DNA of 64,000 nucleotides from Betaproteobacteria bacterium (GCA_021298815.1 JAJTHE010000006.1:1780-65779); one strand, 5' to 3'; positions 2,688 to 52,686 are shown, counted from the stretch's first letter. Numbers and translations: made by a program. Notes: generated from the sequence alone by a model not told the origin.

Positions 2688-2753
2688 TACCCTCCGGTCG
2701 GCAGCAGCCGATGAAGCACAATCGAACAACCGCAGAACCGCACGAGGAACGAC

Positions 2754-38055: not shown

Positions 38056-38454
38056 TCAGTTCATCGCGGACAGGCTGTCGTTCACGCCGCGCACGCCCTC
38101 GATGCCGCGGGCGATCTCCAGGGCCTTCGCGCGTTCTGCGGCGCCCGAGACCTTGCCGCTGAGCGACACCATGCCGTCGCGGGTCTCGACCCCGATCGCC
38201 AGGCCCTTCACCAGCGGGTCGGCCAGCAGCGCGGCCTTGACCTTGCCGGTGACCGCCGTATCGGCGATCGCAGTGCCGGACATCCCCGGGGAGTCCTGGA
38301 CCACCGCGGGTGCGGGGGTGGTGGTCGCCGCAGGCGCTTCGCTGCGCGGCGGCGGGGGCTCATTGCGGCTGCAGCCTGCCAGCGCCAGCAGCGTCACTGC
38401 CCCGGCCATCGCCATCGCGCGTGCGGCGCGCGTCCTGTCTTCGTTCCCGATCAT
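38056..38454 (-). CDS. BON-domain (OsmY-like) lipoprotein
   Basis: Lipobox LAGC; DTAVTGKVKAALL...IGVETRDGMVSLSG...GVRGVNDSL. Confidence 0.88.
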   Translation of the reverse strand: MIGNEDRTRAARAMAMAGAVTLLALAGCSRNEPPPPRSEAPAATTTPAPAVVQDSPGMSGTAIADTAVTGKVKAALLADPLVKGLAIGVETRDGMVSLSGKVSGAAERAKALEIARGIEGVRGVNDSLSAMN

Positions 38455-38507
38455 CTCGTGCTCTCCTTGCCATTCACCTGCAGCCGGGCACGACTGCAGT
38501 GCATTGC

Positions 38508-38708
38508 CTAGCGCTGGGTGGATTCCCACGCGCTTACCTGCCGCTCCGCCTCGTCCCTGGCGATGCCGTAGTTCTCCTGGATATGCCCGACCAGCTGGTC
38601 GCGCTTGCCCGCGATCTGGTCCACGTGGTCGTCGGTCAGCTTGCCCCACTGCTGCTTGACGTTGCCCTTGAGCTGCTTCCAGTTGCCTTCGATGCGATCC
38701 CAGTTCAT
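38508..38708 (-). CDS. csbD: CsbD/YjbJ family general stress protein
   Basis: MNWDRIEGNWKQLKGNVKQQWGKLTDD...QENYG. Confidence 0.93.
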   Translation of the reverse strand: MNWDRIEGNWKQLKGNVKQQWGKLTDDHVDQIAGKRDQLVGHIQENYGIARDEAERQVSAWESTQR

Positions 38709-38754
38709 GTCGCTGCTCCATGGTGGACAGCCGGATCGGCTGCCTGCCCGGGTT

Positions 38755-38770
38755 CGCAAGCGGCATGCCC
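38755..38770 (-). promoter_or_regulatory. Sigma54 -24/-12 promoter for csbD-BON
   Basis: GGGCATGCCGCTTGCG (GG-N10-GC), about 46 bp upstream of the ATG. Confidence 0.72.
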
Positions 38771-38836
38771 ACGGCGTGCGTGGTCAAGCGCCGGGTGCGC
38801 AGCCGGGTACGGCCCACGCCACCACTCGGCCCGGGG

Positions 38837-39229
38837 TCAGGACCGCGCCAGCAGTTCCAGCACCGCGGCCGGGTCGACCGGCTTCACCAGATAGTGGTCG
38901 AATCCCGACGCCGCCGCCCGTCCGACGTCGTCGGCATGCCCGTAGCCGGTGATCGCGACCAGCAGCGGCACGCACGCGAGCCGGCGCACGGCCTTCGCGA
39001 CCTGATACCCGTTCATCCCGGGCAGGCCGATGTCGCACAGTACGACGTCCGGGCCGACCGCTTCGATCAGCGCCAGCCCCGTGACCCCGTCGTAGGCCAC
39101 GTGCACGACATGCCCCTCGAGCTCGAGCAGCATGGAAAGCGCCTCGACCGAGTCGACGCTGTCGTCGATCAGCACGACCCTGCGGCCGATGGCGGCAGGG
39201 GCTTCCGGGGGACGGTCTGGATCGTGCAA
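38837..39229 (-). CDS. Single-domain response regulator (receiver); start uncertain (TTG)
   Basis: VVLIDD, PDVVLCDIGLPGMNG, AITGY, YLVKP. Confidence 0.82.
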   Translation of the reverse strand: MHDPDRPPEAPAAIGRRVVLIDDSVDSVEALSMLLELEGHVVHVAYDGVTGLALIEAVGPDVVLCDIGLPGMNGYQVAKAVRRLACVPLLVAITGYGHADDVGRAAASGFDHYLVKPVDPAAVLELLARS

Positions 39230-39471
39230 GGTCGTTCGCGTGGGTGGCCTGACCTGGATGAGCAGGAAGCGGGCCCGGACGCGAGACGGTACGTGCAGGG
39301 CGTGCACGGCGCAAGCCGCGGGCATGCGGAATGCGTCCTGCAGCGTCGCATCGCCCGGTGCACTGCGCGCGAGCCAGTGCCCGGCATGCACCCGGTTTCC
39401 CCGGCAGCGTGCCCCCGCGCTGCATTCCGCCCGTGCCCGCCACGGGTGTTTTTCGCTTGGTCGCCAGGCCC

Positions 39472-39486
39472 ATAGCAGACGACTAT
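39472..39486. promoter_or_regulatory. OxyR/LysR-type operator
   Basis: ATAG-N7-CTAT about 70 bp upstream of oxyR. Confidence 0.55.
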
Positions 39487-39554
39487 CCAGGTTTCGCCCT
39501 CGATCGTTTTTTAATATGCTCGGGGCTCCATACGCCTGGATGCAACTGCTGCCG

Positions 39555-40481
39555 ATGACCCTCACCGAACTGCGCTACATCGTCGCCCTGGCACGCGAAC
39601 GCCACTTTGCCCGGGCCGCCGCGGCCTGCTTCGTGTCGCAACCCACGCTGAGCGTGGCCGTGAAGCGGCTGGAGGACGAACTGGGGCTGCCCCTGTTCGA
39701 GCGCGGCACCGGCGACGTGACGACCACGCCGATCGGCGAACAGATCATCGCCCAGGCACAGCGGGTGCTGGAGCAGGCCACGGTCATCCATGAACTGGCA
39801 CGCTCGGGCAAGGATCCGCTTTCCGGCCCCCTGCGCCTTGCGGCCATCCACACGATCGCGCCCTACCTGCTTCCCCTGCTCGTGCGCGTGCTGGTTAAGC
39901 GCGCGCCACGCATGCCGCTGATCCTCGAGGAAGGCTACACCCACGAACTGCTCGAGCGACTGCGCCGCGGCGAGATAGACGCCGCCGTCCTGGCGCTGCC
40001 GGTGCCCGAGTCCGGACTCGCGCAGCGCGACCTCTACGAGGAGCCCTTCCAGGTCGCCATCCCCGCGCAGCATGCCTGGGCGAAACTGCGGCGCATCGAA
40101 GCCGGCCGGCTGAAGGAGGAAACGATGCTGCTGCTGGGCGCTGGCCACTGCCTGCGCGACCAGGTCCTCGCAGTGTGTCCCGAGGCCGCGCGCTTCTCCA
40201 GCAGCGCCGAGGGCATACGCCGCACCTTCGAGGGGACGTCGCTCGAGACCATCCGCCAGATGGTGGCATCGGGTCTCGGCATAACGGTGATCCCGTCGAG
40301 CGCGATCCCGGCACAGGTCCGGCGCGACGATCTGATCGTCTACCGACCGTTCAACGCACCCGCGCCCACGCGGCGCGTGGCGATCGTCTGCCGGCGCACC
40401 TACGCCCGGATGGCTGCCATCGATGCGGTCGCCGACGCCGTGCGCGAGACCGCCCTGCCCGGGGTCGGGATGCTGGACTGA
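39555..40481 (+). CDS. oxyR: H2O2-sensing LysR regulator OxyR
   Basis: MTLTELRYIVALARERHF...VSQPTLS; GHCLRDQVLAVC redox Cys pair; SLETIRQMVASG. Confidence 0.9.
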   Translation: MTLTELRYIVALARERHFARAAAACFVSQPTLSVAVKRLEDELGLPLFERGTGDVTTTPIGEQIIAQAQRVLEQATVIHELARSGKDPLSGPLRLAAIHTIAPYLLPLLVRVLVKRAPRMPLILEEGYTHELLERLRRGEIDAAVLALPVPESGLAQRDLYEEPFQVAIPAQHAWAKLRRIEAGRLKEETMLLLGAGHCLRDQVLAVCPEAARFSSSAEGIRRTFEGTSLETIRQMVASGLGITVIPSSAIPAQVRRDDLIVYRPFNAPAPTRRVAIVCRRTYARMAAIDAVADAVRETALPGVGMLD

Positions 40482-40490
40482 CCCCGGGAA

Positions 40491-41723
40491 TCAGTGCAGC
40501 AGCCGGCAGCGGATCGTTCCGGGGATGGCCTGAAGCTCCTCCAGTGCGACGTTGCTAGCCGCGATCTCGACGTCCATCACGCAATAGCCGATGGTCGGCG
40601 TGGTCTGCAGGTACTGCCCGGTGATGTTTACCCCGCGCGCGCCGAACCGCTCGTTGATGCGCGCCAGCACCCCCGGAACGTTCCGATGGATGTGCAGCAG
40701 CCGGCACATGCCCGGATGCTCCGGCAGCGTGACCTCGGGGAAGTTGACCGCGGTCAGCGTGGAACCGTTGTCGCTGTAGCGCACCAGCTTGTCGGTCACC
40801 TCGATACCGATGTTCGCCTGCGCCTCGGCTGTCGAGCCGCCGATGTGCGGGGTCAGGATGACGTTGTCGAAGCGGGTGAGCGGCGACACGAAGCGGTCGT
40901 CGTTGCCCTTCGGCTCGACCGGGAACACGTCGAGCGCGGCGCCGCCGAGGTGGCCGCTGTGGAGCGCCTCGGCCAGCGCGTCGATGTCGACCACCGTTCC
41001 GCGCGATGCGTTGATCAGGTGGCTGCCTCGGCGCAGCGTCGCGAGCTGCGCGGCGCCGATCATGTTCAGCGTCTGCGAGGTCTCGGGCACGTGCAGCGTG
41101 ACCACGTCGCTTTCCGAGAGCAGGCCGTCGAGCGTCGCCACCTGGCGCGCGTTGCCCAGCGGCAGCTTCGCCTCGGTGTCGAAGAAGCAGACCCGCATGC
41201 CCAGGTGCTCGGCCAGGATGCCGACCTGCTTGCCGATATTGCCGTAGCCGACGATGCCCAGCGTCTTGCCACGCACCTCGTAGCTTCCCGCGGCAGACTT
41301 GATCCATTCGCCGCGATGGGCGCCGGCGTTGCGCTTCGGGATGCTGCGCATCAGCATCACGGTTTCGGCGATCACCAGTTCGGCCACGCTGCGCGTGTTC
41401 GAAAACGGCGCGTTGAACACCGGCACCCCGAGCTCGGCCGCGGTGTCGACGTCGACCTGGTTGGTGCCGATGCAGAAGCAGCCGATCGCCGCGAGCTTCG
41501 GGGCGCTGCGCAGCACGCGCTCGGTGACCTGCGTCTGGGATCGGATGCCGAGGAAATGCACCTGGGCCAGCGCCTCGATCAGCGCATCCTCGCCGAGCGA
41601 CTTCGGGTGCTGCACGATGCGACTGTAGCCGTTCGCCGACAGCACCTCGACCGCGTTCGGATGGATGTTCTCCAGCAGAAGGAACTGGATGTTCTTCTTG
41701 TCCAGCGAGACGGGGGTGGTCAT
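40491..41723 (-). CDS. serA: D-3-phosphoglycerate dehydrogenase
   Basis: CFCIGTNQ, APFSNTRSVAE, GIVGYGNIG, TPHIGGST, C-terminal ACT domain. Confidence 0.95.
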   Translation of the reverse strand: MTTPVSLDKKNIQFLLLENIHPNAVEVLSANGYSRIVQHPKSLGEDALIEALAQVHFLGIRSQTQVTERVLRSAPKLAAIGCFCIGTNQVDVDTAAELGVPVFNAPFSNTRSVAELVIAETVMLMRSIPKRNAGAHRGEWIKSAAGSYEVRGKTLGIVGYGNIGKQVGILAEHLGMRVCFFDTEAKLPLGNARQVATLDGLLSESDVVTLHVPETSQTLNMIGAAQLATLRRGSHLINASRGTVVDIDALAEALHSGHLGGAALDVFPVEPKGNDDRFVSPLTRFDNVILTPHIGGSTAEAQANIGIEVTDKLVRYSDNGSTLTAVNFPEVTLPEHPGMCRLLHIHRNVPGVLARINERFGARGVNITGQYLQTTPTIGYCVMDVEIAASNVALEELQAIPGTIRCRLLH

Positions 41724-41854
41724 CGGGTCGCTCCGTGAAACGCGCTTGCTGCGGCGCGGAGCGGGAGTCTACCGCGCCTTCCCGACAGACGGCAGCGCAG
41801 CCGACTGTCCGCAGCACCCCCGCGGACCGGGGCCCGCGGGAGGTGGCCTCGGCG

Positions 41855-42178
41855 TCAGTTCTTGCCGGGACGAACCACGATGTCGTTCTGCACCGAGCGC
41901 ACGCCCGGCACGCCACGCGCGATCTCGCCGGCCCGCTGGCGCTCGGCTGCGCTGGTCGCGAAGCCGCTCAGCTGGACCGTGCCGCGCATCGTTTCCACGC
42001 TCAGGCGCAGCGCGTTGACGCGATCGTCCTCGACGAAGCGCGACTTGACACGGGTGGTGATGGTCGCATCATCGACGTACTCGCCGGCGGTCTGCTGGCC
42101 ACCGAAGACACCGCAACCCGACACGAGGATCGCCAGCATCGCGGCGACGAAGAGCTTGAGCATTTTCGTGTTCATCAT
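41855..42178 (-). CDS. BON-domain lipoprotein
   Basis: Lipobox VSGC; GEYVDDATITTRVK...VETMRGTVQLSGF...GVRSVQND. Confidence 0.9.
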   Translation of the reverse strand: MMNTKMLKLFVAAMLAILVSGCGVFGGQQTAGEYVDDATITTRVKSRFVEDDRVNALRLSVETMRGTVQLSGFATSAAERQRAGEIARGVPGVRSVQNDIVVRPGKN

Positions 42179-42242
42179 TCTTTCTCCCTGGGATTTTCGG
42201 CTGGACTGGCAGCCGCGGCGGAATGCCCGCCGCCGGGGAGTG

Positions 42243-42258
42243 CGCAAGTAGCGTTCCT
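42243..42258 (-). promoter_or_regulatory. Sigma54 promoter for the BON gene
   Basis: AGGAACGCTACTTGCG (GG-N10-GC). Confidence 0.65.
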
Positions 42259-42267
42259 GCCGCGAAT

Positions 42268-43209
42268 TCAGGCCGCGCCGCGATGCTTGTGCTGGTACAT
42301 CGCGGCATCGGCGCTTTCGAGCAGCGCTTCCGGCGAAAGCCCGTCGTCGGGAAACACCGCGCAGCCGACTGACACGCTCAGGTGCACGCGCTGTCCGTCG
42401 ATGCTGAAGGGCGCCCTCAGCGCGGCCTGCAGCTTCTCGACGATCGCGCCGATCACCGCGGGATTCTCGATCTGCGGGATGACGGCGACGAACTCGTCGC
42501 CCCCGAGGCGCGCCAGGGTGTCGGCGGAACGAAGCGGCGCGGAGAACCGGCGCGCGACTTCCTTCAGCACGCGGTCGCCGTTCTCGTGGCCGTGCAGGTC
42601 GTTGATCGGCTTGAACCGGTCGAGGTCCAGGAACAGCACCGCGACCCGGCGCGAGGTGCGCTGCGCCTGTGCGATCGCCTGCGCGAGCCGGTCGTCGAGC
42701 AGGGCGCGGTTGGGCAGCCCGGTCAGCGGATCGTGGAAGGCCTGGTGCTGCAGCCGGTACAGTTCCGCCTCCATTTCGGTGACATGCGACACCCGGGCCA
42801 CCTCGAGCTTGCGCTCGGCCAGGGCACGCTCGACCAACTGCAGCAGCTGGGCCGGGTCGAACGGCTTGGAGACGAAGTCGAAGGCCCGGAAGCGCAGTGC
42901 GTCGATCGCGTATTCGATCGAAGTCTCGCCGGACAGGAATATCACCGGCAGGTCGAGCCGGTGCTCGCGCAGTTCGCGCAGGACTTCGATGCCGCTGAAA
43001 TCGGGGATGTTCACGTCGAACAGTGCGATGTCGAACGGACGTTGCGAGAGGAGGTCCATCGCCTCGCGCCCGCGCTCCACCGTGACGACCGCATAACCCG
43101 CGTCGGCCAGCAGCGCGTCGAGCATCTGCGCCGAAGCGGTGTCGTCCTCCAGCACGAGGATCGTCGCCTTCGGTCCGGCTTCCCGCTCGCCCGCCACTTG
43201 GATGGTCAT
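42268..43209 (-). CDS. REC-GGDEF diguanylate cyclase
   Basis: LVLEDD, ALFDVNIP, VSKP; HDPLTGLPNR, I-site RSAD, GGDEF. Confidence 0.92.
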   Translation of the reverse strand: MTIQVAGEREAGPKATILVLEDDTASAQMLDALLADAGYAVVTVERGREAMDLLSQRPFDIALFDVNIPDFSGIEVLRELREHRLDLPVIFLSGETSIEYAIDALRFRAFDFVSKPFDPAQLLQLVERALAERKLEVARVSHVTEMEAELYRLQHQAFHDPLTGLPNRALLDDRLAQAIAQAQRTSRRVAVLFLDLDRFKPINDLHGHENGDRVLKEVARRFSAPLRSADTLARLGGDEFVAVIPQIENPAVIGAIVEKLQAALRAPFSIDGQRVHLSVSVGCAVFPDDGLSPEALLESADAAMYQHKHRGAA

Positions 43210-43252
43210 CTGGTGAATTCGCCCCGCACGGGATCAGGTGACGAGGAAAGTG

Positions 43253-43268
43253 CGCAAGGTCCATGCCC
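43253..43268 (-). promoter_or_regulatory. Sigma54 promoter for the diguanylate cyclase
   Basis: GGGCATGGACCTTGCG. Confidence 0.72.
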
Positions 43269-43286
43269 GCGCGGGCGGCGTGCCCC

Positions 43287-43302
43287 GGGCACGCGGCGTG
43301 CG
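43287..43302 (+). promoter_or_regulatory. Sigma54 promoter for cardiolipin synthase
   Basis: GGGCACGCGGCGTGCG, divergent from the DGC promoter. Confidence 0.55.
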
Positions 43303-43361
43303 TCGACCGTGGTTCGTGCGCCGCGCGCGCACTGTATCAGGCCGGAGTTTGCGTTCATGCG

Positions 43362-44741
43362 ATGACCATTTCAAGTGAATATGTCCTCCCCGGGAAGCGC
43401 CTGCGCGGCCGCTGCTGGGTACTGGCGGCGCTGCTGCTCGGGGGTTGCCTCGCCCCGGTCCGGATGGACGCTGTCGCGGTGCCACGCGCGACCACGCCGG
43501 CCGCCACCGCCCAGGCCACCCGGGCGGTGGCGGCCCTCGTCCGGCGCAGCGGCGACACCCTGATCGAGCGGCACGTGGCGCATGCGGCCAAGGTGCTCGG
43601 CACGCCCATCGTGGCAGGCAACGCCGCCCGGCTGCTGGTCGACGGTCCGCAGACCCATGAACAGATGTTCGCGTCGATCGCCGCTGCCCGCGACCACGTC
43701 AACATGGTGAGCTACATCATCGACGACGGCGAGACCGGCGAGCGGCTCGCGGAGACGCTGATCGGCAGGCGGCGCGCCGGCGTGGTGGTCAACCTCATGT
43801 ACGACAGCGTGGGTTCGATGGCAACGCCAGCCGGATGGTTCGACCGCCTGCGCGAGGCTGGCGTCTCGGTCTGCGAGTTCAATCCGGTCAACCCGTCCCG
43901 GACGAGGCGCACCTGGCGCGTGAACAACCGCGACCACCGCAAGATACTGGTGGTCGATTCGGCCACCGGCTTCACCGGCGGGATCAACGTGAGCGACGTG
44001 TATTCCGCGGGATCCTTCGGCTCGGCCCGCAGCCGCGACAGCGGCGAGGTCCCGTGGCGCGACACGCACGTGATGATCAGCGGCCCCGCAGTGGCGGACC
44101 TGCAGCGCAGCTTCGTCGATCGCTGGATCCAGCAGGGTTGCCCCTCCCTGGGGGACACCGCGCGCTACTTTCCCGAGCTGAAGGACGCAGGACGATTGCC
44201 GGTTCGCGTGGTGACCGGCGGCCCGGAACACGATACCAGCGACCACTATCGCGCGTTGATATCGGCATTCGAGCATGCGGAGCAGCGCATCTACATCACC
44301 TGCGGATACTTCGTCCCCGACCCTGGCATGCGCGACGCCCTGGTGGGGGCCGCGCGGCGCGGCGTGGACGTGCGCCTGCTGCTGCCCAGCGTCAGCGACT
44401 TCTGGGCACCGCTGGAGGCCGGCCGCTCGCACTACGCGGCGCTGCTCGCCGCCGGCGTGCGCATCCACGAACGCACTGGCGCCCTGTTGCATGCGAAGAC
44501 CGCCGTGGTCGACGGCGTCTGGAGCACCATCGGTTCCACCAACCTCGACTTCCGCAGCTTCCTGCACAACGAGGAAGCGAACGTGATCGTGCTCGACGAC
44601 CACTTCGCCGCGGAACTCGAGCGCCTGTTCGGGCGCGACCTCGAGCGTTCCAGAGAGATCGATGCGCGCGAATGGTCCCGCCGCGGATTCGTACCACGCC
44701 TCCGGCAGTGGTTCGCCCGGCAGTTCGAGTACCTGCTCTGA
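43362..44741 (+). CDS. Cardiolipin synthase-like phospholipase D, probable lipoprotein
   Basis: Two HKD motifs (RDHRKILVVD, LHAKTAVVD), WRDTH, GSTNLD; LLGGC possible lipobox. Confidence 0.9.
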   Translation: MTISSEYVLPGKRLRGRCWVLAALLLGGCLAPVRMDAVAVPRATTPAATAQATRAVAALVRRSGDTLIERHVAHAAKVLGTPIVAGNAARLLVDGPQTHEQMFASIAAARDHVNMVSYIIDDGETGERLAETLIGRRRAGVVVNLMYDSVGSMATPAGWFDRLREAGVSVCEFNPVNPSRTRRTWRVNNRDHRKILVVDSATGFTGGINVSDVYSAGSFGSARSRDSGEVPWRDTHVMISGPAVADLQRSFVDRWIQQGCPSLGDTARYFPELKDAGRLPVRVVTGGPEHDTSDHYRALISAFEHAEQRIYITCGYFVPDPGMRDALVGAARRGVDVRLLLPSVSDFWAPLEAGRSHYAALLAAGVRIHERTGALLHAKTAVVDGVWSTIGSTNLDFRSFLHNEEANVIVLDDHFAAELERLFGRDLERSREIDAREWSRRGFVPRLRQWFARQFEYLL

Positions 44742-44758
44742 TGGCGGCGGGCCCTTTC

Positions 44759-44774
44759 GGGCATGCGCGCTGCG
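44759..44774 (+). promoter_or_regulatory. Sigma54 promoter for the small ORF
   Basis: GGGCATGCGCGCTGCG. Confidence 0.6.
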
Positions 44775-44824
44775 GGTGAAGGATCGTCGCGGCCCGGGCG
44801 CTGCATCCCAGTGAGGACCCCAAG

Positions 44825-45088
44825 ATGACACGATCGGACGAGATCCGGATTCCCGCTGCGGTGCTCGGTGCGGCACTTGCCGCAGTGCTCGGCGCGGCCG
44901 CCATGTACCTGGCGATGCGCCGGCGCCATGATGCGCAGAGGCTCGACGCCCTGACGCGCCGCAGCGGCAGCGACGAGCGGCGTCGCGGATGCCATGCAAC
45001 GGACGAGGCCGGCATGACTCAGGAGCTGCCGGTGGAGAACCAGGCGATAGAGCCGGCACCCGGGGTCCGCGTGAGCGTGATCGGCTGA
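44825..45088 (+). CDS. Small membrane-anchored hypothetical protein (87 aa)
   Basis: GAGGA RBS, N-terminal hydrophobic helix, upstream promoter. Confidence 0.55.
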   Translation: MTRSDEIRIPAAVLGAALAAVLGAAAMYLAMRRRHDAQRLDALTRRSGSDERRRGCHATDEAGMTQELPVENQAIEPAPGVRVSVIG

Positions 45089-45243
45089 CCCTCGGCACGC
45101 AAGCACCGGCCCCGCCATCCGCCGCATCCGGAAAGTTTGACGGGGCCGCCTGCAAGAAATGCAGGAAGGCAGGGCTCCGGGTCGCGGCCGCGACCTGCCC
45201 TGCGCATCGGGCACGGCTGGGCGAACGCGGATCCACCCTTGCA

Positions 45244-45257
45244 TTCAATGGCTTGAA
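45244..45257. promoter_or_regulatory. IHF-like palindromic site upstream of the rpoN promoter
   Basis: TTCAA-TGGC-TTGAA, one mismatch to WATCAA-N4-TTR on either strand, about 27 bp before the -24 element. Confidence 0.4.
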
Positions 45258-45283
45258 AATCCGCCCCCGGAACCTGCAGCTGA

Positions 45284-45299
45284 TGGCACGGCGTTTGCA
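45284..45299 (+). promoter_or_regulatory. Canonical sigma54 promoter for rpoN
   Basis: TGGCACGGCGTTTGCA matches the consensus TGGCACG-N4-TTGCW exactly. Confidence 0.85.
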
Positions 45300-45337
45300 G
45301 AAGAGTGGCTGCCACCCACGTTTCCAGCGAGTATCCG

Positions 45338-46828
45338 ATGATCAGAGCCGACCTCCAGCACCGCACGGGCCAGCAGCTCGCGATGACGCCGCAACTGCAG
45401 CACTCGATCCGGCTGCTCCAGTTGTCCGCCGCCGAGTTCGAGCAGGAACTCGAGGAGACGCTGTCCAACAATCCTTTCCTCGAACGCGACGATTCCCTGC
45501 GCGAGTCCGGCACGGAAGCCGTCTCTTCCGGCGATGCCGGCGACGGGCAATCCGTCGACACGCAGGGCGAGGCCGCGCCGGAGGCCGCGGGCGATCGCCT
45601 GGACGTGATCGCGGCACCGGAATCCTCGGCGGCAGACTGGGACGACGAGTCGTCGCTGCGCTTCGATGCGCCCTCCTCCGGCGAACGCTCGACCGACGAC
45701 CCGGACGCCACACACTTCGCCCCGGCGGCCAGCTGCATGTACGACCACCTGCTCGAGCAGCTCGGGGTGTGCCGGGTCAGCGCGCGAGATCGCGAGCTGG
45801 CACGCCTGGTGGTCCATGCGCTCGAACCGGACGGCTACCTGCGCACCCCGCTCGAGGAGCTGATTGCGATGTGCCCGGCGCGCGAGGCCGTGCAGGTCGA
45901 CGAACTGTCGGTGGTCCTGCGGCTGGTGCAGAGCTTCGAGCCGGCAGGCATCGCCGCGCGCTCGCTCGAGGAGTGCCTTCTGCTGCAGCTGGGCGATCGC
46001 GACGAGGACACGCCCGGCCTGGCGCTGGCGCAGCGCATCGTGCGCGGCCACCTCGCGCAGCTCGCCACGCCGGACACGCCGCGCCTGCTGCGTGCGCTGG
46101 GCTGCAGCGACGCCGAATTCGCCAGCGCCTACCAGCTGATCCGCGGCTGCTCGCCCAGGCCGGGACAGGCCTTCGGGTCGGAGCGCACCGACTACGTGGT
46201 CGCCGACGTGCAGGTGCGCAAGATCGGCAAGCGCTGGGTCGCCCGCATCAACCCGGAGGTGGTGCCGCGCATCCACCTCAACCGCGGCTTCGTGTCGATG
46301 GTGCGCGAGCAACGCGGGTCTAGCAGTTCGCCGATCGGCCAGCACCTGCAGGAAGCACGCTGGTTCGTGCGCAACGTGAACCAGCGCTTCCGCACCATCC
46401 TGCGCGTGGCGCAGGCGATCGTCGATCGCCAGAGCCGGTACTTCGAGCATGGCGACATCGCGATGCGCCCGCTGGTGCTGCGCGAGATCGCGGAGACGCT
46501 GGGCATGCATGAATCGACCGTCTCGCGCGTGACGTCGAACAAGTACATGATGACTACGCGCGGCCTCATGGAACTGAAGTACTTCTTCAGCAGCCATGTC
46601 GAGTCCGACGGGCACGCCTGCTCGGCGCGTGCGGTGCGGGCGCTGATCCGCCAGATCCTCGTGTCCGAGGAAGCGCGCCATCCGCTGTCGGACGTGAAGG
46701 TCGCACGCCTGCTGGCGGAAAAGGGCATCGTGGTCGCGCGCCGCACGGTGTCCAAGTACCGCGACTCGATGCACATCCCCTCGGTCGAAGTTCGCCGGCT
46801 GTCCTCGTCCGAGGCACTTGCCGCCTGA
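45338..46828 (+). CDS. rpoN: RNA polymerase sigma54 factor, probably a secondary paralogue
   Basis: QQLAMTPQLQHSIRLLQLS...NPFLE, HESTVSRVTSNKY, ELKYFF, RpoN box ARRTVSKYR. Confidence 0.95.
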   Translation: MIRADLQHRTGQQLAMTPQLQHSIRLLQLSAAEFEQELEETLSNNPFLERDDSLRESGTEAVSSGDAGDGQSVDTQGEAAPEAAGDRLDVIAAPESSAADWDDESSLRFDAPSSGERSTDDPDATHFAPAASCMYDHLLEQLGVCRVSARDRELARLVVHALEPDGYLRTPLEELIAMCPAREAVQVDELSVVLRLVQSFEPAGIAARSLEECLLLQLGDRDEDTPGLALAQRIVRGHLAQLATPDTPRLLRALGCSDAEFASAYQLIRGCSPRPGQAFGSERTDYVVADVQVRKIGKRWVARINPEVVPRIHLNRGFVSMVREQRGSSSSPIGQHLQEARWFVRNVNQRFRTILRVAQAIVDRQSRYFEHGDIAMRPLVLREIAETLGMHESTVSRVTSNKYMMTTRGLMELKYFFSSHVESDGHACSARAVRALIRQILVSEEARHPLSDVKVARLLAEKGIVVARRTVSKYRDSMHIPSVEVRRLSSSEALAA

Positions 46829-46885
46829 ACCGTGCGCGGGCGGCCCGGCGCGGCTCGCGGCGGCAGCGCCGTCCCGGCCGGCGGC

Positions 46886-48295
46886 TCAGTCGCGTGCCGG
46901 CTCGCCCGCGTCGCTGCCGTACTCGCGAAGCCGGTTGTAGAGCGTCTTGGCGCTGATGCCCAGCAGTTCCGCCGCCTTTTCCTTGTGCCCCCTGACCGAC
47001 TCCAGGGTCGCCAGGATCAGCTGCCGTTCCATCGCCTCGATCGTCGTGCCCACCTGGATCGTGATCGACTGCGCGGAGCGCACCGGTGCATCGAACGGGA
47101 TGCAGGCAGCGGTGATCGATTCGCCGTCGGCCATGATGTAGGCGCGCTGCACGACGTTGCGCAGTTCGCGCACGTTACCCGGCCACGCGTACTGCGACAG
47201 CTTCTCGATCGCCGAAGCATCCAGCTTGCGCGCCCCGCCCTCGCGCGTGTTGAGCGCATCGAGGAAGTGCCGGGCGAGGAGTTCGACGTCCTCCAGCCGA
47301 TCGCGCAGGGGCGGTACGCGGATCTGGAACACGTTCAACCGGTAGAACAGGTCCTCGCGCAACCTGCCGGTCGCCACGGCCTGGGCCGGGTCGCGGTTGG
47401 TGGCGGCGATGATGCGCACGTCGGTCTCGAGCAGCTCGTCCGAGCCGACCCGCATGAAGGTCCCGGTCTCGAGTACCCGGAGCAGCTTCACCTGCAGCTC
47501 CGGCGGCATCTCGGTCACTTCATCCAGGAACAGCGTGCCCCCGTTCGCCCGCTCGAAGAAGCCGCGGTGCTGGCGGTTCGCGCCGGTGAAGCTTCCCTTC
47601 TCGTGCCCGAACATCTCGCTTTCGATCAGCTGCGGCGAGATCGCTCCGCAGTTGACCGCCAGGAACGGTGCCTTGCGCCGGCGGCTCAGGTCGTGGATGG
47701 TCTGGGCCACCACTTCCTTGCCCGCCCCGCTCTCGCCGACGATGAACACGGTGACCGCGGTGCCTGCAACGCGGCCGATCTGCGTGTAGACCACCTGCAT
47801 CACCGCCGCGCGCCCGCGCAGGTGGCCGAAGCGGCCTTCCCGGTCGGCAACATGCTGCAGGCCGGCGATCTCCGCGCGCGCCTCGGCCGGACGGCCGATG
47901 CGGTTCAGCACGGCCTTCAGCTGGCGCGGACTCACCGGCTTCAGCAGGTAGTCGGCGGCGCCGAGGCGCAGCGCCTGGATGGAAGTCTCGAGCGTCGCAT
48001 GGCCGGTCATCAGCACGATCTCGACGCTGCCGTGCTCCTCGCGCTCGCCGAACAGTTCCATGCCGCTGCCGTCGGGCAGCATCAGGTCTAGCAGCACCAC
48101 GTCCGGCAGGCGCATCACGAGCTGCTGCCGCGCCTCCGCCAGCGAACCGGCGATCGCGGTGCGGAAGCCCTCCTCGCGCACGAGTTCGGCGAGCGCCTGG
48201 GCTGCATCGCGCTCGTCCTCGACGATCAGGGCGAAGGGTTCGTTGCGCGATGCCACCGGCGACGCGGCGGCAGCTTTCGAATTTGCGGTAGCCAT
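46886..48295 (-). CDS. Sigma54-dependent response regulator (REC-AAA+-Fis HTH)
   Basis: IVEDE, LLDLMLP; GESGAGKE, GSFTGA, LFLDEV, REDLFYRL, WPGNVREL; AAELLGISAKTLYNRL. Confidence 0.95.
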   Translation of the reverse strand: MATANSKAAAASPVASRNEPFALIVEDERDAAQALAELVREEGFRTAIAGSLAEARQQLVMRLPDVVLLDLMLPDGSGMELFGEREEHGSVEIVLMTGHATLETSIQALRLGAADYLLKPVSPRQLKAVLNRIGRPAEARAEIAGLQHVADREGRFGHLRGRAAVMQVVYTQIGRVAGTAVTVFIVGESGAGKEVVAQTIHDLSRRRKAPFLAVNCGAISPQLIESEMFGHEKGSFTGANRQHRGFFERANGGTLFLDEVTEMPPELQVKLLRVLETGTFMRVGSDELLETDVRIIAATNRDPAQAVATGRLREDLFYRLNVFQIRVPPLRDRLEDVELLARHFLDALNTREGGARKLDASAIEKLSQYAWPGNVRELRNVVQRAYIMADGESITAACIPFDAPVRSAQSITIQVGTTIEAMERQLILATLESVRGHKEKAAELLGISAKTLYNRLREYGSDAGEPARD

Positions 48296-48375
48296 GTCGC
48301 GCCTGTTGGTCAATCAGTCATGCATGGTACACGCTAAGCACTGGCCCGATCGTCAAGCGAACATGGGTACAGTCG

Positions 48376-48391
48376 CGCAAGGGACAGGCCG
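48376..48391 (-). promoter_or_regulatory. Possible sigma54 promoter for the activator gene
   Basis: CGGCCTGTCCCTTGCG. Confidence 0.5.
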
Positions 48392-48393
48392 CC

Positions 48394-48409
48394 GGGCACC
48401 GGGATTGCG
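48394..48409 (+). promoter_or_regulatory. Sigma54 promoter for the hybrid kinase-like gene
   Basis: GGGCACCGGGATTGCG. Confidence 0.68.
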
Positions 48410-48495
48410 AGGGTCGCCTGTCCATCGAACATGCCCGCGCGGAGCTGAATGGCGGGCGCCGCAACACGCATCGCGCAGGAGCACCGGAGCAGACC

Positions 48496-49797
48496 TTGTC
48501 TTCAGATGCACCAGGCACATCCCCCGGACGCGGCGTGGCCGAGCCGTCCGTCGAGGGCACGCGCACCGCCGCCCTCGAACCGGCGCTGGCGGACGCCCGC
48601 CTCGCTGCAGCCGCGACCGAACGGGCTGTACGCGGTCGCGACGAACTGCTGTCGCTGGTGTCGCACGACCTTCGGTCCGCATTGAACGCGATGGTCGGCT
48701 GGCTGTACCTGGCGCGATCGCCGACGGCGGAAGCCGCTGCCCGCGCGCGCGCGCTGGAGGGCATCGCCTCGGCGGTCGACACCCAGCGCCGGCTGGTCGA
48801 CCAGTTGCAGGACGCCGCGCGGCTGCTCGGCGGCCGGGTACCTGCGGATTGCCGGCCTGTCCACGCCGCAGCGGTGTTGCAGCGAGTCGTCGCGCGGCTG
48901 GCCACGCACGCGGCGGACCGATCGGTGGCTCTGCACGTCGCTGCATCGCCGGACGGGCTGTCCTTCCTCGCGGATCCGTCGCGCGTGGAAGACTCCCTGT
49001 ATGCGATGGTCGAGCATGCGCTGGCCGTCACGCCCGGCCAGGGCATCGTCCACGTCGGCGCGCGACCGGAGGTAGCCCAGCGCGCAACGACGATCGTGCT
49101 CGAAGTCCGCAGTGCCGGCGCCAGGGCCGGCGCAGCGGCCACGCAGGCCGCTGCGCCGGACGGCGGCCTCGCAGCGTCGCCGACGCTCGCGCTGGCCATC
49201 GCCCGCGCCGTGACGGAACTCCAGGGTGGCACCCTCGACGTGCAGGCCGGCCCGCCCGGGTCGGGCACCCACCTGTCGCTGCGCTTTCCGGCCCACGATG
49301 CCGTGCAGGCGGAGGCGGCCAGGGTGCAGCCTGCACCGGCCCCCCTCCGCACCGGCTTCTTCGACGCCCCGGGCGGCATGGACGATCCGGACGACATGGA
49401 TATCCTCCGCGGATGCTTCATCCTGCTGACCGACGATCGCGACGACATGCTGGAGGTGGGTGCCACCGTGCTGCGACGGCATGGCGCGCACGTCACGACG
49501 GCGGGTTCCGGCGCCGAGTCGATCGCCCTCTACCCGGCCTGGGCGCGCGGCGGCGGCGAACGCCTGATGATCTCGGACCTTTCGATGCCGGACATCGACG
49601 GGCTTGCGATGATCGGCCGCATCCGCCGGATCGAAGGCGAATCGGGCCTGCCTCGCGTGCCTGCGGTGGCGTTCTCGGCGCAGGCCGACCGTTACGCCAG
49701 GCCCACGGTCATGCAGGCGGGCTTCGACCTGTTCCTCGCCAAGCCGCTGTCGCCGGCGCAACTGATCGGGGCGATATCGCCGCTGGTGGGAAGATAG
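48496..49797 (+). CDS. Sensorless hybrid histidine-kinase-like protein (HisKA, degenerate HATPase, REC)
   Basis: SHDLRSALNAM H-box; N-box reads MVEHALA; no DxGxG; REC with LTDDRDD, ISDLSMP, FLAKP. Confidence 0.8.
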   Translation: MSSDAPGTSPGRGVAEPSVEGTRTAALEPALADARLAAAATERAVRGRDELLSLVSHDLRSALNAMVGWLYLARSPTAEAAARARALEGIASAVDTQRRLVDQLQDAARLLGGRVPADCRPVHAAAVLQRVVARLATHAADRSVALHVAASPDGLSFLADPSRVEDSLYAMVEHALAVTPGQGIVHVGARPEVAQRATTIVLEVRSAGARAGAAATQAAAPDGGLAASPTLALAIARAVTELQGGTLDVQAGPPGSGTHLSLRFPAHDAVQAEAARVQPAPAPLRTGFFDAPGGMDDPDDMDILRGCFILLTDDRDDMLEVGATVLRRHGAHVTTAGSGAESIALYPAWARGGGERLMISDLSMPDIDGLAMIGRIRRIEGESGLPRVPAVAFSAQADRYARPTVMQAGFDLFLAKPLSPAQLIGAISPLVGR

Positions 49798-49877
49798 GGC
49801 CGGACGACCCTGCGGCAGGCGGCGCCGGACGGCTGTGCTCGTATACCTTGCGGGATGCCGAAGAAGAGGCGCGCCCC

Positions 49878-51896
49878 GTGAAGAGAACGCCTTCCCTGTC
49901 CATCCTCGTGCTGTTCGCGGCTGCCGTCTTCGGTCCGCTCGCCATCCTGCGAGCTGCCGCCTCCCTCACCCACCAGTACATCCACCAGGACGCCGAGCGG
50001 CACGCCCTGCGCTCGGCCGAGCTGCTGCGGGAACACGCGTTGCGCGTGTTCTACCTGTACCAGCTGATCCTCGGCCAGGTGGAACGCCGCGCCGGCTCGA
50101 TGGACTGGCGGCAGATCGTCGCCTCGCACGCGATGCACGACGAACTGCGCGGCCTGACCGAACCGGTGCGGGAAGCCGACAGCGTCTCCTTCCGGGCGCC
50201 GACCGGTCGCCACTGGTCGAGCAGCCGCCAGTTCCCGATGCTATAGCTGGACGCGAGCGAGCGCGACTACTTCGTCGCTCAGCGCGAACCGCCCAGCGCG
50301 TTCTTCATCGTTGCGCCAGCCGAGGCGAGGCTCACCGGGCAGGAGTTCTTCGCGTTGACGCGTGCCCGCATCGGCGCCGACGGCGGCTTCGACGGCGTGT
50401 TCGCGGTGTCCGGCGACATCGACTACTTCCGCCAGTTCTACCGCGGAATTCGCGAGACGTCCGGCAACGTGCTGGCGCTGGTGCGGACGGATGGCGCCTT
50501 CCTCGTGCGGGAACCCATGCAGTCGGCCGACGTGCCGCGCCTGAGCGAGTCCTCCAGCCTGATGCACGCGATCCGCGCCGCCCCGGCCGGCCACTTCCGC
50601 AGCCGCGGCGAAGTCGACCAGCGCGACAGTCTCTACGGCTATGCACGCGTGGACGAGTATCCGGTCTACGTGGCCTGCGGACTGTCGATGCAGGGCGTGG
50701 AACGGCAGTGGCGCCGCTCGCTGACGCTGTACTCCGTCGTCACCCTGCTGGCGATCGCCATGCTGCTGGTGGCCGCCGTGCTCGCGCGGCGCAACGCACA
50801 GCGCGCGCAGCGCCCTCACGAGGAGCGCGAGGAGGAGCTGCAGCTGCACGAACTGGCCGAAGAGGGATTGCGCCGCGGGCAGCGGCTGGAGGCGATCGGC
50901 CGCATGACGGCGGCATCGCGCACGACTTCAACAACCTGCTGCAGGTACTCACGGTGAACATCGAGGTGCTGCGCCGGCGCCTGTCGACCTGGCTGCTCCC
51001 TGAGGACGTCCACGAGCGGCCGCTCGCGGCCATGGAGCGGGCCACGAACCAGGGCGCGCGCCTGACCCGCCAGCTGCTGTCGTTCTCGCGCCGCTCCAGC
51101 CTGCAGCCGCGCCGCGTGTCGCTCGCCGCGTTCCTGCCCGAGCTGTCGGAACTGCTGTGGGCGGTGCTGCGCAACCGCATCGCGCTCTCGATAGCGCTCG
51201 ATCCGGACACCGGCGAGATCGACGTCGATCCGGACGAACTCGAACTCGCACTGCTCAGCCTGGCGACCAACGCCCGTGACGACATACCGGCCGGCGGCAC
51301 CCTGCGCATCCATGCCGGCAACCTGCAGCCCGGCACCGTCGTGGACGGCGACGCGCTGGCGCCCGGCTGGGTTGCGCTGTCGGTCTCCGACACCGGCAGC
51401 GGCATCGCACCCGGAACGCTGCAGAGCATCTTCGACCCGTTGTTCACGACCAAGCCGGTCGGCCAGGGCACCGGGCGCGGGCTGAGCCAGGTCTACGGCT
51501 TCGTCACCCAGTCGGGCGGACGCGTGACCGTGCAGAGCACGTTCGGCACGGGCACCCGCTTCACGCTGCTGTTCCCCCGCCGGGTCGAATGACGAAGACG
51601 CACTGTCGCCCACCGTGCTCGACGGCCTGACCGTGCTGGTCGCCGACGACGAGGTCGATACCGGCACGGCCGTGGCCCAACTGGTCGCCGGCACCGGCGC
51701 GCGCGAGGCAGGCATGCGCCACCCCGACCTCACCATCGTCCTGATGACCGCCTATGCCGACTCGCCCGAGGTCACGTCGGGCGAGTTCGACGTGGTGCGC
51801 AAGCCGGTCAGTTCAGGAAGCCTGCTGCAGGCGATACGGCGCGCCCGCGCGCGCCGTTCGCGACACGCGGCACGCGGGGAGGCTTCTCCTGCGTGA
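49878..51896 (+). pseudogene. Cache-sensor hybrid histidine kinase, disrupted
   Basis: In-frame TAG at 50244-50246; frameshift near 50909 just before GIAHDFNNLL; HATPase runs to 51592; internally deleted receiver remnant at 51615-51896. Confidence 0.8.
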
Positions 51897-52536
51897 CGAC
51901 ACGGCCGTTCGCGTACCGCTCGCCGGCGCCTCCGGCCGACGCGGGCGCATCGCCCAGCACGGCGGCATCCAGCGCGAACTTCGCGCGCATGTCGGGCATG
52001 CGCGGGGCGAAGGTTGGTTGTGCACGCCGCGCGGCGACGAACAGCCTGGCGCGCTCCTGCTCCAGGTGGCGGTGCAGCCAGGCGCCAAGGACGTTCAGCG
52101 TCGGCTGGTAGCGTTCGTCGAACGGCTTCATGCCGTCCAGCCGCCACATCAGGTCGCGCGCCACCTCGATCTCGATCTCCGCCTCCAGGATCACGCCGGC
52201 ATCGGCCAGCGTCTCGTACAGCACCGGATAGACGCTGCCCACCTTGAGGTCGAAGTGGCTGCGCAGGCCACCGAGCAGGCGCTGCCCGGCCTGCGCCAGG
52301 CTCTCCGCGTCCTTGGCACCGATCTTCGCGGCGCGCGAGAACTGCTGCTCCAGCCTGCGGTGAGCCGCCGTCAGCAGCCCTTCGATCTCCAGCCAGGCGC
52401 TGCGTTCGACCTTCGGATCTGCCGACAGCCGCGCGCGACGGACGGGCTTGCTCGCGTTCGTCCTGGGCGGGGTGCTGGGTGCGTGCACCCCGGTGCGCCC
52501 GCGCGAGGCGACCTCGCCTCGTATGGTTTTAGGCAT
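51808..52536 (-). CDS. Hemerythrin-like protein with degenerate iron ligands
   Basis: LLTAAHRRLEQQF...SHFDLKVGSVYP...EAEIEI...HRHLEQERARLF; GGAGAA RBS. Confidence 0.65.
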   Translation of the reverse strand: MPKTIRGEVASRGRTGVHAPSTPPRTNASKPVRRARLSADPKVERSAWLEIEGLLTAAHRRLEQQFSRAAKIGAKDAESLAQAGQRLLGGLRSHFDLKVGSVYPVLYETLADAGVILEAEIEIEVARDLMWRLDGMKPFDERYQPTLNVLGAWLHRHLEQERARLFVAARRAQPTFAPRMPDMRAKFALDAAVLGDAPASAGGAGERYANGRVVTQEKPPRVPRVANGARGRAVSPAAGFLN

Positions 52537-52574
52537 GACGTTCTCCACGATGAAACCGATTCACCCTGGAGGCA

Positions 52575-52590
52575 TGCAACGCGCATGCCC
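52575..52590 (-). promoter_or_regulatory. Sigma54 promoter for the hemerythrin-like gene
   Basis: GGGCATGCGCGTTGCA. Confidence 0.72.
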
Positions 52591-52686
52591 GCCTCGGGCC
52601 GCAAGCCCGGCGCGCAGCGCGGGGCCGGTGTAACCTCTGCGCCAGGCGCGCCGGACAGGCGCCCTTCCTTCGACGGGAGCACCCGC

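Follow-up and report, generated by a model that had tools for sequence, protein, structure and literature searches.

Does a second sigma-54 factor, together with its own activator and its own version of the -24/-12 promoter, serve a set of stress-type genes in a bacterium in which RpoS is not found? This question is raised by a locus at positions 38,056 to 52,590 of the window, i.e. the whole 64,000-nucleotide (nt) stretch of a Betaproteobacteria bacterium that was analysed (G000:C141:1780-65779, about 70% G+C; G000 is this genome and C141 the contig). The first-pass annotation, made from the sequence of the window alone, had proposed that the general stress response here runs through a dedicated sigma-54 and its own phosphorelay. 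This proposal was partly supported: the rpoN gene is an extra copy, the sigma-54-type promoter motifs in front of its neighbours are real, the paralogue, its activator and this promoter class share one phyletic pattern, and RpoS was not found. That the locus encodes a dedicated sigma-54 paralogue circuit for stress-type genes with its own activator and a variant promoter finds good support in the sequence data, and we regard it as rather probable. The target set may reasonably be called a 'general stress response' for working purposes, although this is unproven.

G000 is uncultured and its only source are freshwater metagenomes; the assembly comprises 173 contigs, with a completeness of 88% and a contamination of 4%. 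Since plain lists of open reading frames are useless at about 70% G+C, genes were called with a crude, home-made caller from the G+C content at codon positions and a codon-usage log-odds score, and were named by Pfam. This caller yielded 4690 genes in G000, 16 of them in the cluster, and left 11.5% of the genome intergenic. Contig C141 belongs to G000 because serA, pdxH and csbD, all located on it, are each single-copy in the assembly; a chimeric bin was ruled out by these genes and by the presence of only one canonical rpoN. For comparison we used a genus set of 15 genomes (G000 and 14 others) and an outgroup set of 26 representatives of other families in the order, the unpublished G039 among them.

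Three rpoN genes in the genome

A search with the Sigma54_DBD model returned three rpoN copies in G000; thus the rpoN of the window is not the sole copy. The canonical gene is found on contig C142 in the order kdsD-kdsC-lptC-lptA-lptB-rpoN-hpf-ptsN-hprK, whereas the window copy lies between a small transmembrane (TM) gene and a convergent activator gene, outside the lptB-rpoN-hpf-ptsN context, as the first-pass annotation had noticed. The two genes at the centre of the locus are:

45338-46828, plus strand: sigma-54 paralogue (type A); Pfam Sigma54_AID 57, Sigma54_CBD 170.5 and Sigma54_DBD 196.2 bits
46886-48256, minus strand: NtrC-family activator with receiver (REC), AAA+ and HTH_8 domains, convergent with the rpoN paralogue; Response_reg 81.5, Sigma54_activat 231.6 and HTH_8 51 bits

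The paralogue belongs to the sigma-54 family by all three Pfam domains and by its RpoN box, ARRTVSKYRD. It is 45% identical to the canonical RpoN of G000 and 74% identical to the third copy, which is encoded on contig C118 (33309-34772). A canonical rpoN and two paralogues were also present in G004 and G010. In a quick tree (LG+G4, 46 rows; a single quick tree is weak evidence) the paralogue clade was monophyletic, with a Shimodaira-Hasegawa-like approximate likelihood ratio (SH-aLRT) of 97, and divided into the window type and the C118 type. All 18 members of the clade that were compared, comprising the genus copies and metagenomic proteins down to 50% identity, have a helix-turn-helix (HTH) reading SRVT[S/C]NKYM (SRVTSNKYMMT in the window paralogue), the RpoN box ARRTVSKYRD and a short C-terminal extension. 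The canonical proteins of the order read SRVTTQK[F/Y]M and ARRT[V/I]AKYRE at these positions. The HTH of sigma-54 reads the -12 element. The -24 element is read by the RpoN box, and single substitutions in this box create orthogonal sigma/promoter pairs, as described in PMC12096077.

Two classes of sigma-54 promoters

The first-pass annotation relied on GG-N10-GC elements upstream of nine start codons. As evidence this criterion does not go beyond chance: 2598 of the 4690 genes (55%) have GG-N10-GC 38-100 nt upstream, and the pattern is uninformative alone. The extended core GGCAY-N5-TTGC occurs 135 times in 5.39 Mb on both strands, 57 times in the intergenic part. Five exact cores fall into the 14.5 kb of the locus compared with the 135 genome-wide (Poisson p = 4e-5), and 5 of the 16 cluster genes versus 32 of 4690 genes genome-wide have a core within 150 nt upstream, which is an approximately 45-fold enrichment (binomial p = 6e-8). 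The motifs might be chance matches in 70% G+C DNA, the paralogue then being a gene with no local regulon. The 55% frequency of the short pattern would fit such an explanation, but the enrichment of the extended core contradicts it, and so do the conserved placement and sequence of the sites, seen in up to 4 of 4 relatives, and their absence as promoters from paralogue-less genomes. We consider this explanation already refuted and extremely improbable.

In intergenic cores the bases flanking GG and GC were linked (G..G 13, G..A/T 3, T/C..G 1 and T/C..A/T 30; Fisher p = 5e-8). Two classes can be told apart: class I is [T/C]GGCAY-N5-TTGC[A/T], the textbook consensus, and class II is GGGCAY-N5-TTGCG, usually in the form C-GGGCAYG-N4-TTGCG. 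Of the 25 class I genes, nine encode TctC-family binding proteins and two are type IV pilin-like; further genes for transport and the window's rpoN paralogue also belong here. Class II sites precede csbD, the GGDEF gene, the kinase-like gene and the hemerythrin gene in the window. Outside the window they were found in front of a DUF1328 gene followed by the third rpoN, in front of YeaQ (Transgly_assoc), DUF883, AsmA and OsmB-like Gly-zipper lipoprotein genes, and before a dCache-kinase-receiver gene, a gene for an MlaE-like permease and a LuxR-type gene. A position weight matrix (PWM) built from 13 class II sites additionally retrieved cls, the gene of an 87-aa TM protein and a stress-protein-like gene on contig C118. 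Only about 17-25 class II candidate sites exist in G000, and hallmark stress families stand behind them. Altogether, the extended core lies well above background and its sites are conserved in relatives, and the view that the motifs form a sequence class of their own, tied to stress-type genes genome-wide, is supported.

The third rpoN on contig C118 illustrates this arrangement at a second place. It follows directly behind the DUF1328 gene with its class II promoter (32814), and the region C118:32800-39700 continues after the paralogue with AsmA, YeaQ/Transgly_assoc, a 178-aa 'general stress protein'-like gene and a DUF883-like gene. Each of these genes has a class II or class II-like site; the contig contains nine cores.

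A strong class II site, GGGCACGTCCGTTGCG (PWM score 22.3), was also located beyond the window at C141:75921-75936, 46 nt from the contig end. Because it points off this end, its target is not assembled.

Promoters of the locus

The sites in the locus, with their scores on the matrices of class I (PWM I) and class II (PWM II) and their counterparts in relatives, are as follows:

38755-38770, minus strand: class II promoter GGGCATGCCGCTTGCG, 47 nt before the csbD start; PWM II 24.5 versus PWM I 7.6; counterpart upstream of csbD/BON1 in G004
42243-42258, minus strand: class II-like promoter AGGAACGCTACTTGCG before the gene of BON lipoprotein 2 (BON2), one core mismatch; PWM II 10.8; counterparts at 4 of 4 loci with BON2 (scores 10.5-13.2, 65-82 nt upstream)
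43253-43268, minus strand: class II promoter GGGCATGGACCTTGCG, 44 nt before the GGDEF gene; PWM II 24.0; counterparts score 16.8 (G004), 15.5 (G010) and 7.4 (G014), 3/4 clear
43287-43302, plus strand: class II-like promoter GGGCACGCGGCGTGCG before cls, one core mismatch; PWM II 12.5; CCGGGCACG-N4-xTGCG kept in G004 and G010 (3/3 counting the window), not in G011
44759-44774, plus strand: class II-like promoter GGGCATGCGCGCTGCG before the gene of the 87-aa TM protein, one core mismatch; PWM II 13.5; kept in G004 and G010, 51-61 nt upstream (3/3 counting the window)
45284-45299, plus strand: class I promoter TGGCACGGCGTTTGCA, 39 nt before the rpoN paralogue, with 12 of 12 consensus positions matched; PWM I 23.1 versus PWM II 8.3
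48376-48391, minus strand: doubtful site CGGCCTGTCCCTTGCG before the activator gene, GGCCTG..TTGCG; PWM II 11.8; no counterpart in 3 of 3 relatives
48394-48409, plus strand: class II promoter GGGCACCGGGATTGCG before the kinase-like gene; PWM II 15.2; exact cores at the same position in G014, G004 and G012 (4/4 counting the window)
52575-52590, minus strand: class II-type promoter GGGCATGCGCGTTGCA of the hemerythrin gene, 27 nt upstream of it; PWM II 16.4; counterparts at 4 of 4 loci (scores 16.8-19.5, 28-33 nt upstream)

All nine sites listed by the first-pass annotation could be read back at their coordinates. Eight of them fit the extended consensus and are conserved in relatives; the site at 48376 is weak and unconserved. 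With TGGCACG-N4-TTGCW as the extended sigma-54 consensus, five exact GGCAY-N5-TTGC cores and three one-mismatch sites are placed in correct orientation 27-126 nt before start codons. The promoter of the rpoN paralogue is of class I, and a class I site was found 36-49 nt upstream of the paralogue in 7 of the 8 paralogue loci of the genus. This difference in class had been overlooked, as had the second paralogue on contig C118 and the doubtful character of the site before the activator gene.

A further class II-like site, GGGCATGCGGAATGCG (PWM score 15.0), is located at 39320-39335 on the plus strand between the receiver and LysR genes, about 200 nt upstream of the start of LysR; the first-pass annotation had not listed it. 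In three places class II pairs stand back to back on opposite strands, i.e. GGDEF/cls (43253-43302), activator/kinase-like gene (48376-48409) and YeaQ/stress-protein gene (C118:37288-37340). In such pairs only about 4-20 bp separate the -24 elements, which is too little for a conventional upstream activator site to fit in between.

A candidate sigma-54 cascade

In the circuit that these data suggest, the housekeeping sigma-54 would transcribe the paralogue gene from the canonical promoter TGGCAC-N5-TTGCA. The paralogue, opened by the phosphorylated activator, would then read the variant promoter with G for T 5' of GG and G for A/T 3' of GC. This variant would drive csbD-BON1, BON2, cls, the gene of the small membrane protein, the hemerythrin gene, the REC-GGDEF gene and that of the kinase-like protein, and elsewhere in the genome DUF1328 with the second paralogue, YeaQ/GlsB, DUF883/ElaB-like, OsmB-like lipoprotein, AsmA and dCache kinase genes. 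The third rpoN copy itself lies behind a class II promoter. From the sequences we infer that class II promoters depend on the paralogue instead of the housekeeping sigma-54, that the paralogue uses the adjacent activator and that the outcome is protective.

A simple sequence rule may separate the two sigma-54 regulons, as the flanks of GG and GC would be matched by the fixed changes in the RpoN box and the HTH. If this holds, a sigma-54 cascade would be described, and the sigma-54/promoter pairs would be naturally orthogonal ones, which until now were engineered in the laboratory.

The activator itself is an enhancer-binding protein of the NtrC family, containing REC, AAA+ and a Fis-type HTH, with the loop variant GSFTGA in place of GAFTGA. 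In other clades, 84 of 100 activator matches that adjoin a second rpoN have this variant, too. It was rejected as a marker for cognate activators, being unspecific: 3 of the 8 enhancer-binding proteins of G000 carry it (those of the window and of contigs C122 and C98).

Distribution and loss of the island in the genus

The paralogue was found in 7 of the 14 other genus genomes with 66-88% identity, i.e. in 8 of 15 together with G000, and in none of the 26 representatives of other families in the order (best match 48%). The activator has orthologues (74-94% identity) in the eight paralogue genomes and in no others of the genus; the best match in the remaining seven was 41%. A second rpoN, a canonical sigma-54 promoter in front of it and an adjacent activator, which together define an RpoN2-type module, are all found in the genus. 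The gene order PdxH-(CsbD/BON)-REC-LysR-SerA-(BON2)-(GGDEF)-(Cls)-(small TM)-RpoN-activator-kinase-like-hemerythrin-S9 is kept in G004, G010, G012 and G014, with some target genes missing from some of these genomes; in the same four relatives the promoters are conserved along with the gene order.

GGGCAY-N5-TTGCG was detected in all 15 genus genomes, with 5-20 matches in carriers and 2-10 in non-carriers. This whole-genome count is too noisy alone, because many matches are coding. In the paralogue-less G006, G003 and G001 (97-100% complete) there were 17 matches, of which 11 were coding and one had a same-strand start within 300 nt. In G004, 10 of 20 class II matches lie before genes, including those of YeaQ, entericidin and TerB families. 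Thus paralogue, activator and class II promoters follow one phyletic pattern in 8 of 15 genus genomes.

G006 and G003, which have no paralogue, encode a SerA 94% identical to that of the window. Here only 722 and 186 bp, respectively, separate serA from the S9 hydrolase gene, and both the 10.9 kb BON2-to-hemerythrin segment and the csbD-BON1 pair are missing. The 722-bp gap of G006 (contig C15, locus L159, 10857-11578) contains deletion scars, namely the C-termini of BON2 and hemerythrin and, between them, a fusion of the first ~15 codons of rpoN with the final ~45 codons of the kinase-like gene. These scars indicate that the island was ancestral and was then deleted. The system is an accessory island of about 11 kb plus the csbD-BON pair 3 kb away, and its patchy distribution argues for an accessory rather than a core programme. 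The recent loss in close relatives provides natural knockouts for ecological comparison.

A general stress response or a response to one cue

No RpoS was found over the cut-off in the 15 genus genomes (TIGR02394 rpoS_proteo, 378.7 bits). What the model matched in the genus were RpoD-like genes at ~275 bits and RpoH-like ones at ~155 bits, none of them close to the cut-off; contig C59 ends in a 119-aa fragment that reached 76.6 bits and is not assignable. Five carriers of second rpoN genes from other clades have two rpoN genes each, and 0 of 5 have RpoS over the cut-off.

The target set overlaps with the RpoS, SigB and EcfG regulons in CsbD/YjbJ, OsmY-type BON, OsmB, entericidin, ElaB/DUF883, YeaQ, cardiolipin synthase and ferritin-like proteins, families that belong to stress regulons in Escherichia coli and Bacillus subtilis. 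RpoS, SigB and EcfG are sigma-70 family factors controlled by proteolysis or partner switching, whereas the circuit of the window would need an ATP-driven enhancer-binding protein and a -24/-12 promoter.

The paralogue-specific circuit could also answer one cue only, either osmotic or desiccation stress of the envelope, or oxygen, redox or iron sensed via hemerythrin, with cyclic di-GMP as an output. Most targets are envelope or membrane proteins (two BON lipoproteins, cardiolipin synthase, AsmA, the MlaE-like permease, the Gly-zipper lipoprotein, DUF1328, YeaQ and DUF883), hemerythrin and REC-GGDEF are among the best-conserved targets, and a single REC-type activator is what ordinary two-component responses use. 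No chaperone, protease, DNA-repair or catalase genes were seen among the class II targets of G000. Against a single cue speak CsbD/YjbJ, OsmY-type BON, OsmB, entericidin, ElaB/DUF883, YeaQ and ferritin/Dps-like proteins, which are typical members of broad RpoS or SigB regulons. The distant targets described below add ferritin, dodecin, CBS, rhodanese and SDR genes, and no RpoS was found that could cover a general response. A one-cue circuit appears somewhat unlikely to us. If the dedicated sigma-54 circuit proposed above is correct, the locus would show how lineages lacking RpoS organise a stress or stationary-phase programme.

Second rpoN modules in other clades

Species-representative genomes were scanned with the two most conserved peptides of the paralogue clade, and 80 loci were returned. 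Three canonical loci (LptB beside rpoN), one that did not have the signature and four of the same genus were left out. The remaining 72 loci contain a non-canonical ARRTVSKYR-type rpoN and come from Achromobacter, environmental Bordetella, Pusillimonas, Verticiella, Parapusillimonas, Rhodocyclales and uncultured Burkholderiales; many of them are close kin, and therefore the counts overstate independence. Cultured, non-pathogenic carriers include Verticiella sediminum DSM 27279 and Pusillimonas noertemannii DSM 10065. In 57 of the 72 an activator at least 45% identical to that of the window lies within 10 kb.

Over the 1.29 Mb of the 72 loci, 335 sigma-54 cores were counted, a density roughly tenfold that of G000. 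G was the commonest base 5' of GG in these cores (144 versus 80 for T), and the class II pattern occurred 35 times as compared with 4 times for the reversed control. A core was present upstream of the second rpoN in 29 of 31 loci with a placeable start, and the base 5' of GG was T in 29 of 29. In the distant loci, class II sites lie in front of genes for CsbD, BON, ferritin-like, dodecin, CBS, rhodanese, SDR and glycosyltransferase proteins.

On this basis we tentatively suggest, as a possibility that should be viewed with some doubt, that Burkholderiales without RpoS share a second sigma-54 as the missing stationary-phase or general-stress sigma factor, characterized by the ARRTVSKYR box, an altered HTH, its own -24/-12 dialect with G in place of T 5' of GG, and a sigma-54 cascade. 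The lineages concerned may be the freshwater genus, Achromobacter, environmental Bordetella, Pusillimonas, Verticiella and several uncultured ones, and the third copy of G000 behind its class II promoter may form a further tier.

Known sigma-54 paralogues

Second rpoN genes are common in Betaproteobacteria; the role of the one in Ralstonia is 'enigmatic', and for the one in Burkholderia pseudomallei a single target, katE, is known. Compared with these, the window and its relatives offer a concrete, testable regulon of small proteins for the envelope and for stress protection, which in model bacteria depend on RpoS or SigB. Ralstonia has RpoS. RpoN2 of Ralstonia solanacearum GMI1000 (RSp1671; activators RSp1667 and RSp1668) is encoded outside the lptB-hpf-ptsN context like the paralogue of the window. 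Its locus likewise has an adjacent REC-AAA+-HTH activator, with genes of DUF1328 and DUF883-like small membrane proteins beside it. Few G-type promoters were seen there and no regulon has been published; RpoN2 is 44% identical to the window paralogue and has the RpoN box ARRTVAKYR, not ARRTVSKYR. As in the window, the gene is preceded by TGGCAC-N5-TTGCA (PMC4371752). Behind this canonical sigma-54 promoter the gene is silent in an rpoN1 mutant, and the same source calls it 'enigmatic' with no known phenotype (PMC4371752). RpoN2 was described as not interchangeable with RpoN1 (PMC4676750).

RpoN2 of B. pseudomallei, a second sigma-54 encoded on chromosome 2, is according to PMC4745423 not needed for the use of nitrogen or amino acids and is needed for late expression of katE, a classic stationary-phase stress gene, which was lost in the rpoN2 mutant at 48-72 h. 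Unlike in the window, only this one target is known, no promoter class or cognate activator is described, and the organism has RpoS.

In Cereibacter (Rhodobacter) sphaeroides, RpoN1 to RpoN4 are paralogues with gene sets of their own, selected by a promoter base and an activator, as proposed here. RpoN1 and RpoN2 tell promoters apart by the -11 base, and each works with a cognate activator (PMC11999139, citing Poggio 2006). In comparison, G000 has two promoter classes and a co-distributed activator, the assignment of sigma factors to classes being inferred. Unlike the organism of the window, Cereibacter is an alphaproteobacterium, its regulons comprise nif, flagella and an Xre-type repressor, and no sigma-54-to-sigma-54 cascade has been reported for it. 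A plasmid-borne RpoN of Bradyrhizobium sp. DOA9 is said to 'fine-tune stress responses' (PMC13207237). Subscription journals and supplements aside, we found no literature on a sigma-54 paralogue that serves a regulon of the CsbD/BON type or reads a G-type -24 dialect.

Specificity of the paralogue

Several observations weigh against a dedicated circuit. The two-class split was found post hoc in G000, from 47 sites and with a crude gene caller; as it was discovered and not predicted, it needs independent confirmation. Nor are the classes clean, because the hemerythrin promoter ends in TTGCA and two TctC/TolB-type genes have class II-like sites. In the distant clades G does not prevail 3' of GC (G..T 67, G..G 35, G..C 35), so that the 5' G is the more general mark. 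A BON, Cls, YeaQ, DUF1328 or CsbD homologue is located within 10 kb in only 20 of the 72 loci. The 15 genus genomes are kin and not independent samples, and the island is dispensable in some settings, being absent from 7 of the 15. No RNA runs containing window positions 43000-52700 are listed, and one metatranscriptome from a carrier-run sample contained next to no words of this region.

A common upstream activator site was not detected either when 7-9-mers on either strand were compared over the 200 nt upstream of 17 class II promoters; the best p value against 1500 random gene upstream regions was 7e-5, and none survived correction for about 2000-3000 words. A placement of Ralstonia RpoN2 in the clade of the window was not supported by the quick tree, which puts its long branch beside the canonical clade. 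The rpoN2 of B. pseudomallei restored amino-acid use in an E. coli rpoN- strain (PMC4745423), and that of Ralstonia rescued growth on C4-dicarboxylates (PMC4676750). As RpoN2 partly replaces canonical RpoN, specificity is not absolute in those relatives. Finally, co-occurrence cannot say whether paralogue or activator ties class II to the island, because the two are always together.

These points matter for an explanation in which the housekeeping sigma-54, or any of the three copies, reads the variant promoters and specificity comes from the activator, the paralogue merely adding to the supply or drifting to loss. The identical distributions of activator and paralogue, which comparative data cannot separate, would suit it, as would the partial replacement of canonical RpoN by both RpoN2 proteins (PMC4745423, PMC4676750), the loss of the island in close relatives, and GSFTGA activators away from paralogues in G000 (3/8). 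Yet activators bind upstream sites and not the flanks of GG and GC, while both flanking bases co-vary and track the target class, and no shared upstream site was found that could carry an activator-based specificity. The paralogue clade has fixed substitutions in both of its DNA-reading elements in 18 sequences down to 50% identity. The promoter of the second rpoN itself keeps T in 29 of 29 distant loci, whereas its neighbours favour G, which is expected from two sigma factors. We judge the activator-based explanation to be unlikely and prefer a class II promoter read by the paralogue.

Other genes of the locus

The gene list of the first-pass annotation was correct according to Pfam and the translations. 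Besides the rpoN paralogue and the activator gene, the locus and its borders contain:

left of BON lipoprotein 1: PdxH
38056-38454, minus strand: BON lipoprotein 1 (BON1, OsmY-like); Pfam BON 59.8 bits, lipobox LLALAGC in the translation
38508-38708, minus strand: csbD, 66 aa; Pfam CsbD 79.5 bits, one tblastn match in G000
38837-39175, minus strand: single-domain response regulator; Pfam Response_reg
39540-40481, plus strand: LysR, housekeeping
40491-41723, minus strand: SerA, housekeeping
41855-42178, minus strand: BON lipoprotein 2; Pfam BON 73.5 bits, lipobox LVSGC
42268-43209, minus strand: REC-GGDEF diguanylate cyclase; Pfam GGDEF 167.7 bits, Response_reg 98.7 bits
43362-44741, plus strand: PLD-type cardiolipin synthase (cls); Pfam PLDc_2 135.4 bits, two stretches
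44825-45088, plus strand: 87-aa protein, predicted to have a single TM helix; no Pfam family
48535-49797, plus strand: HisKA+REC hybrid kinase-like protein (HybHK); HisKA 26.7 bits, Response_reg 56.7 bits; start codon uncertain, 48496 or 48535
49878-51592, plus strand: dCache sensor histidine kinase, disrupted, by Pfam and read-back
51808-52548, minus strand: hemerythrin-domain protein; Pfam Hemerythrin 33.7 bits
beyond the hemerythrin gene: S9-type hydrolase

BON1 is probably co-transcribed with csbD, as judged from the 53 nt that separate the csbD stop from BON1. Homologues of the 87-aa TM protein, 63-68% identical, occupy the same position in G004 and G010.

With respect to signalling, a phosphorelay of the island's own, as claimed by the first-pass annotation, is only a possibility, because the kinase-like protein has no recognisable ATP-binding motifs, the dCache kinase is disrupted and the single receiver persists in a relative that has lost the island. 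The kinase-like protein gave no HATPase_c match in Pfam; the ATP-binding domain in its sequence is degenerate, with no recognisable motifs. The dCache kinase gene is interrupted by an in-frame TAG (50244-50246) and, directly ahead of the H-box, by a frame change of 1 nt near 50907. Around the TAG the sequence was identical in Logan contigs of four runs from four studies; the frame change was neither confirmed nor dismissed by these contigs, which break at the repeated H-box (~50908-50940). No counterpart of this gene lies between the kinase-like gene and hemerythrin in G014, G004 and G012. An intact paralogue of the dCache kinase with a receiver domain is encoded at C148:17483-19774, behind a class II promoter.

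Membership of the single receiver in the circuit is uncertain; its gene is also present in the paralogue-less G006, and no convincing -24/-12 site was found upstream of it (best PWM score <= 6.3). A weak GGC..N..CTGC element lies in the region 39086-39110 on the minus strand, about 90 nt before the receiver gene. Its distance is constant, 86-93 nt, in the window, G014, G004 and G012; it does not have the A of GGCA and scores low on both PWMs.

Just left of the locus, at 36140-37072 on the plus strand, an SdiA-regulated/phytase-like beta-propeller protein with a PEP-CTERM-like C-terminal tail is encoded.

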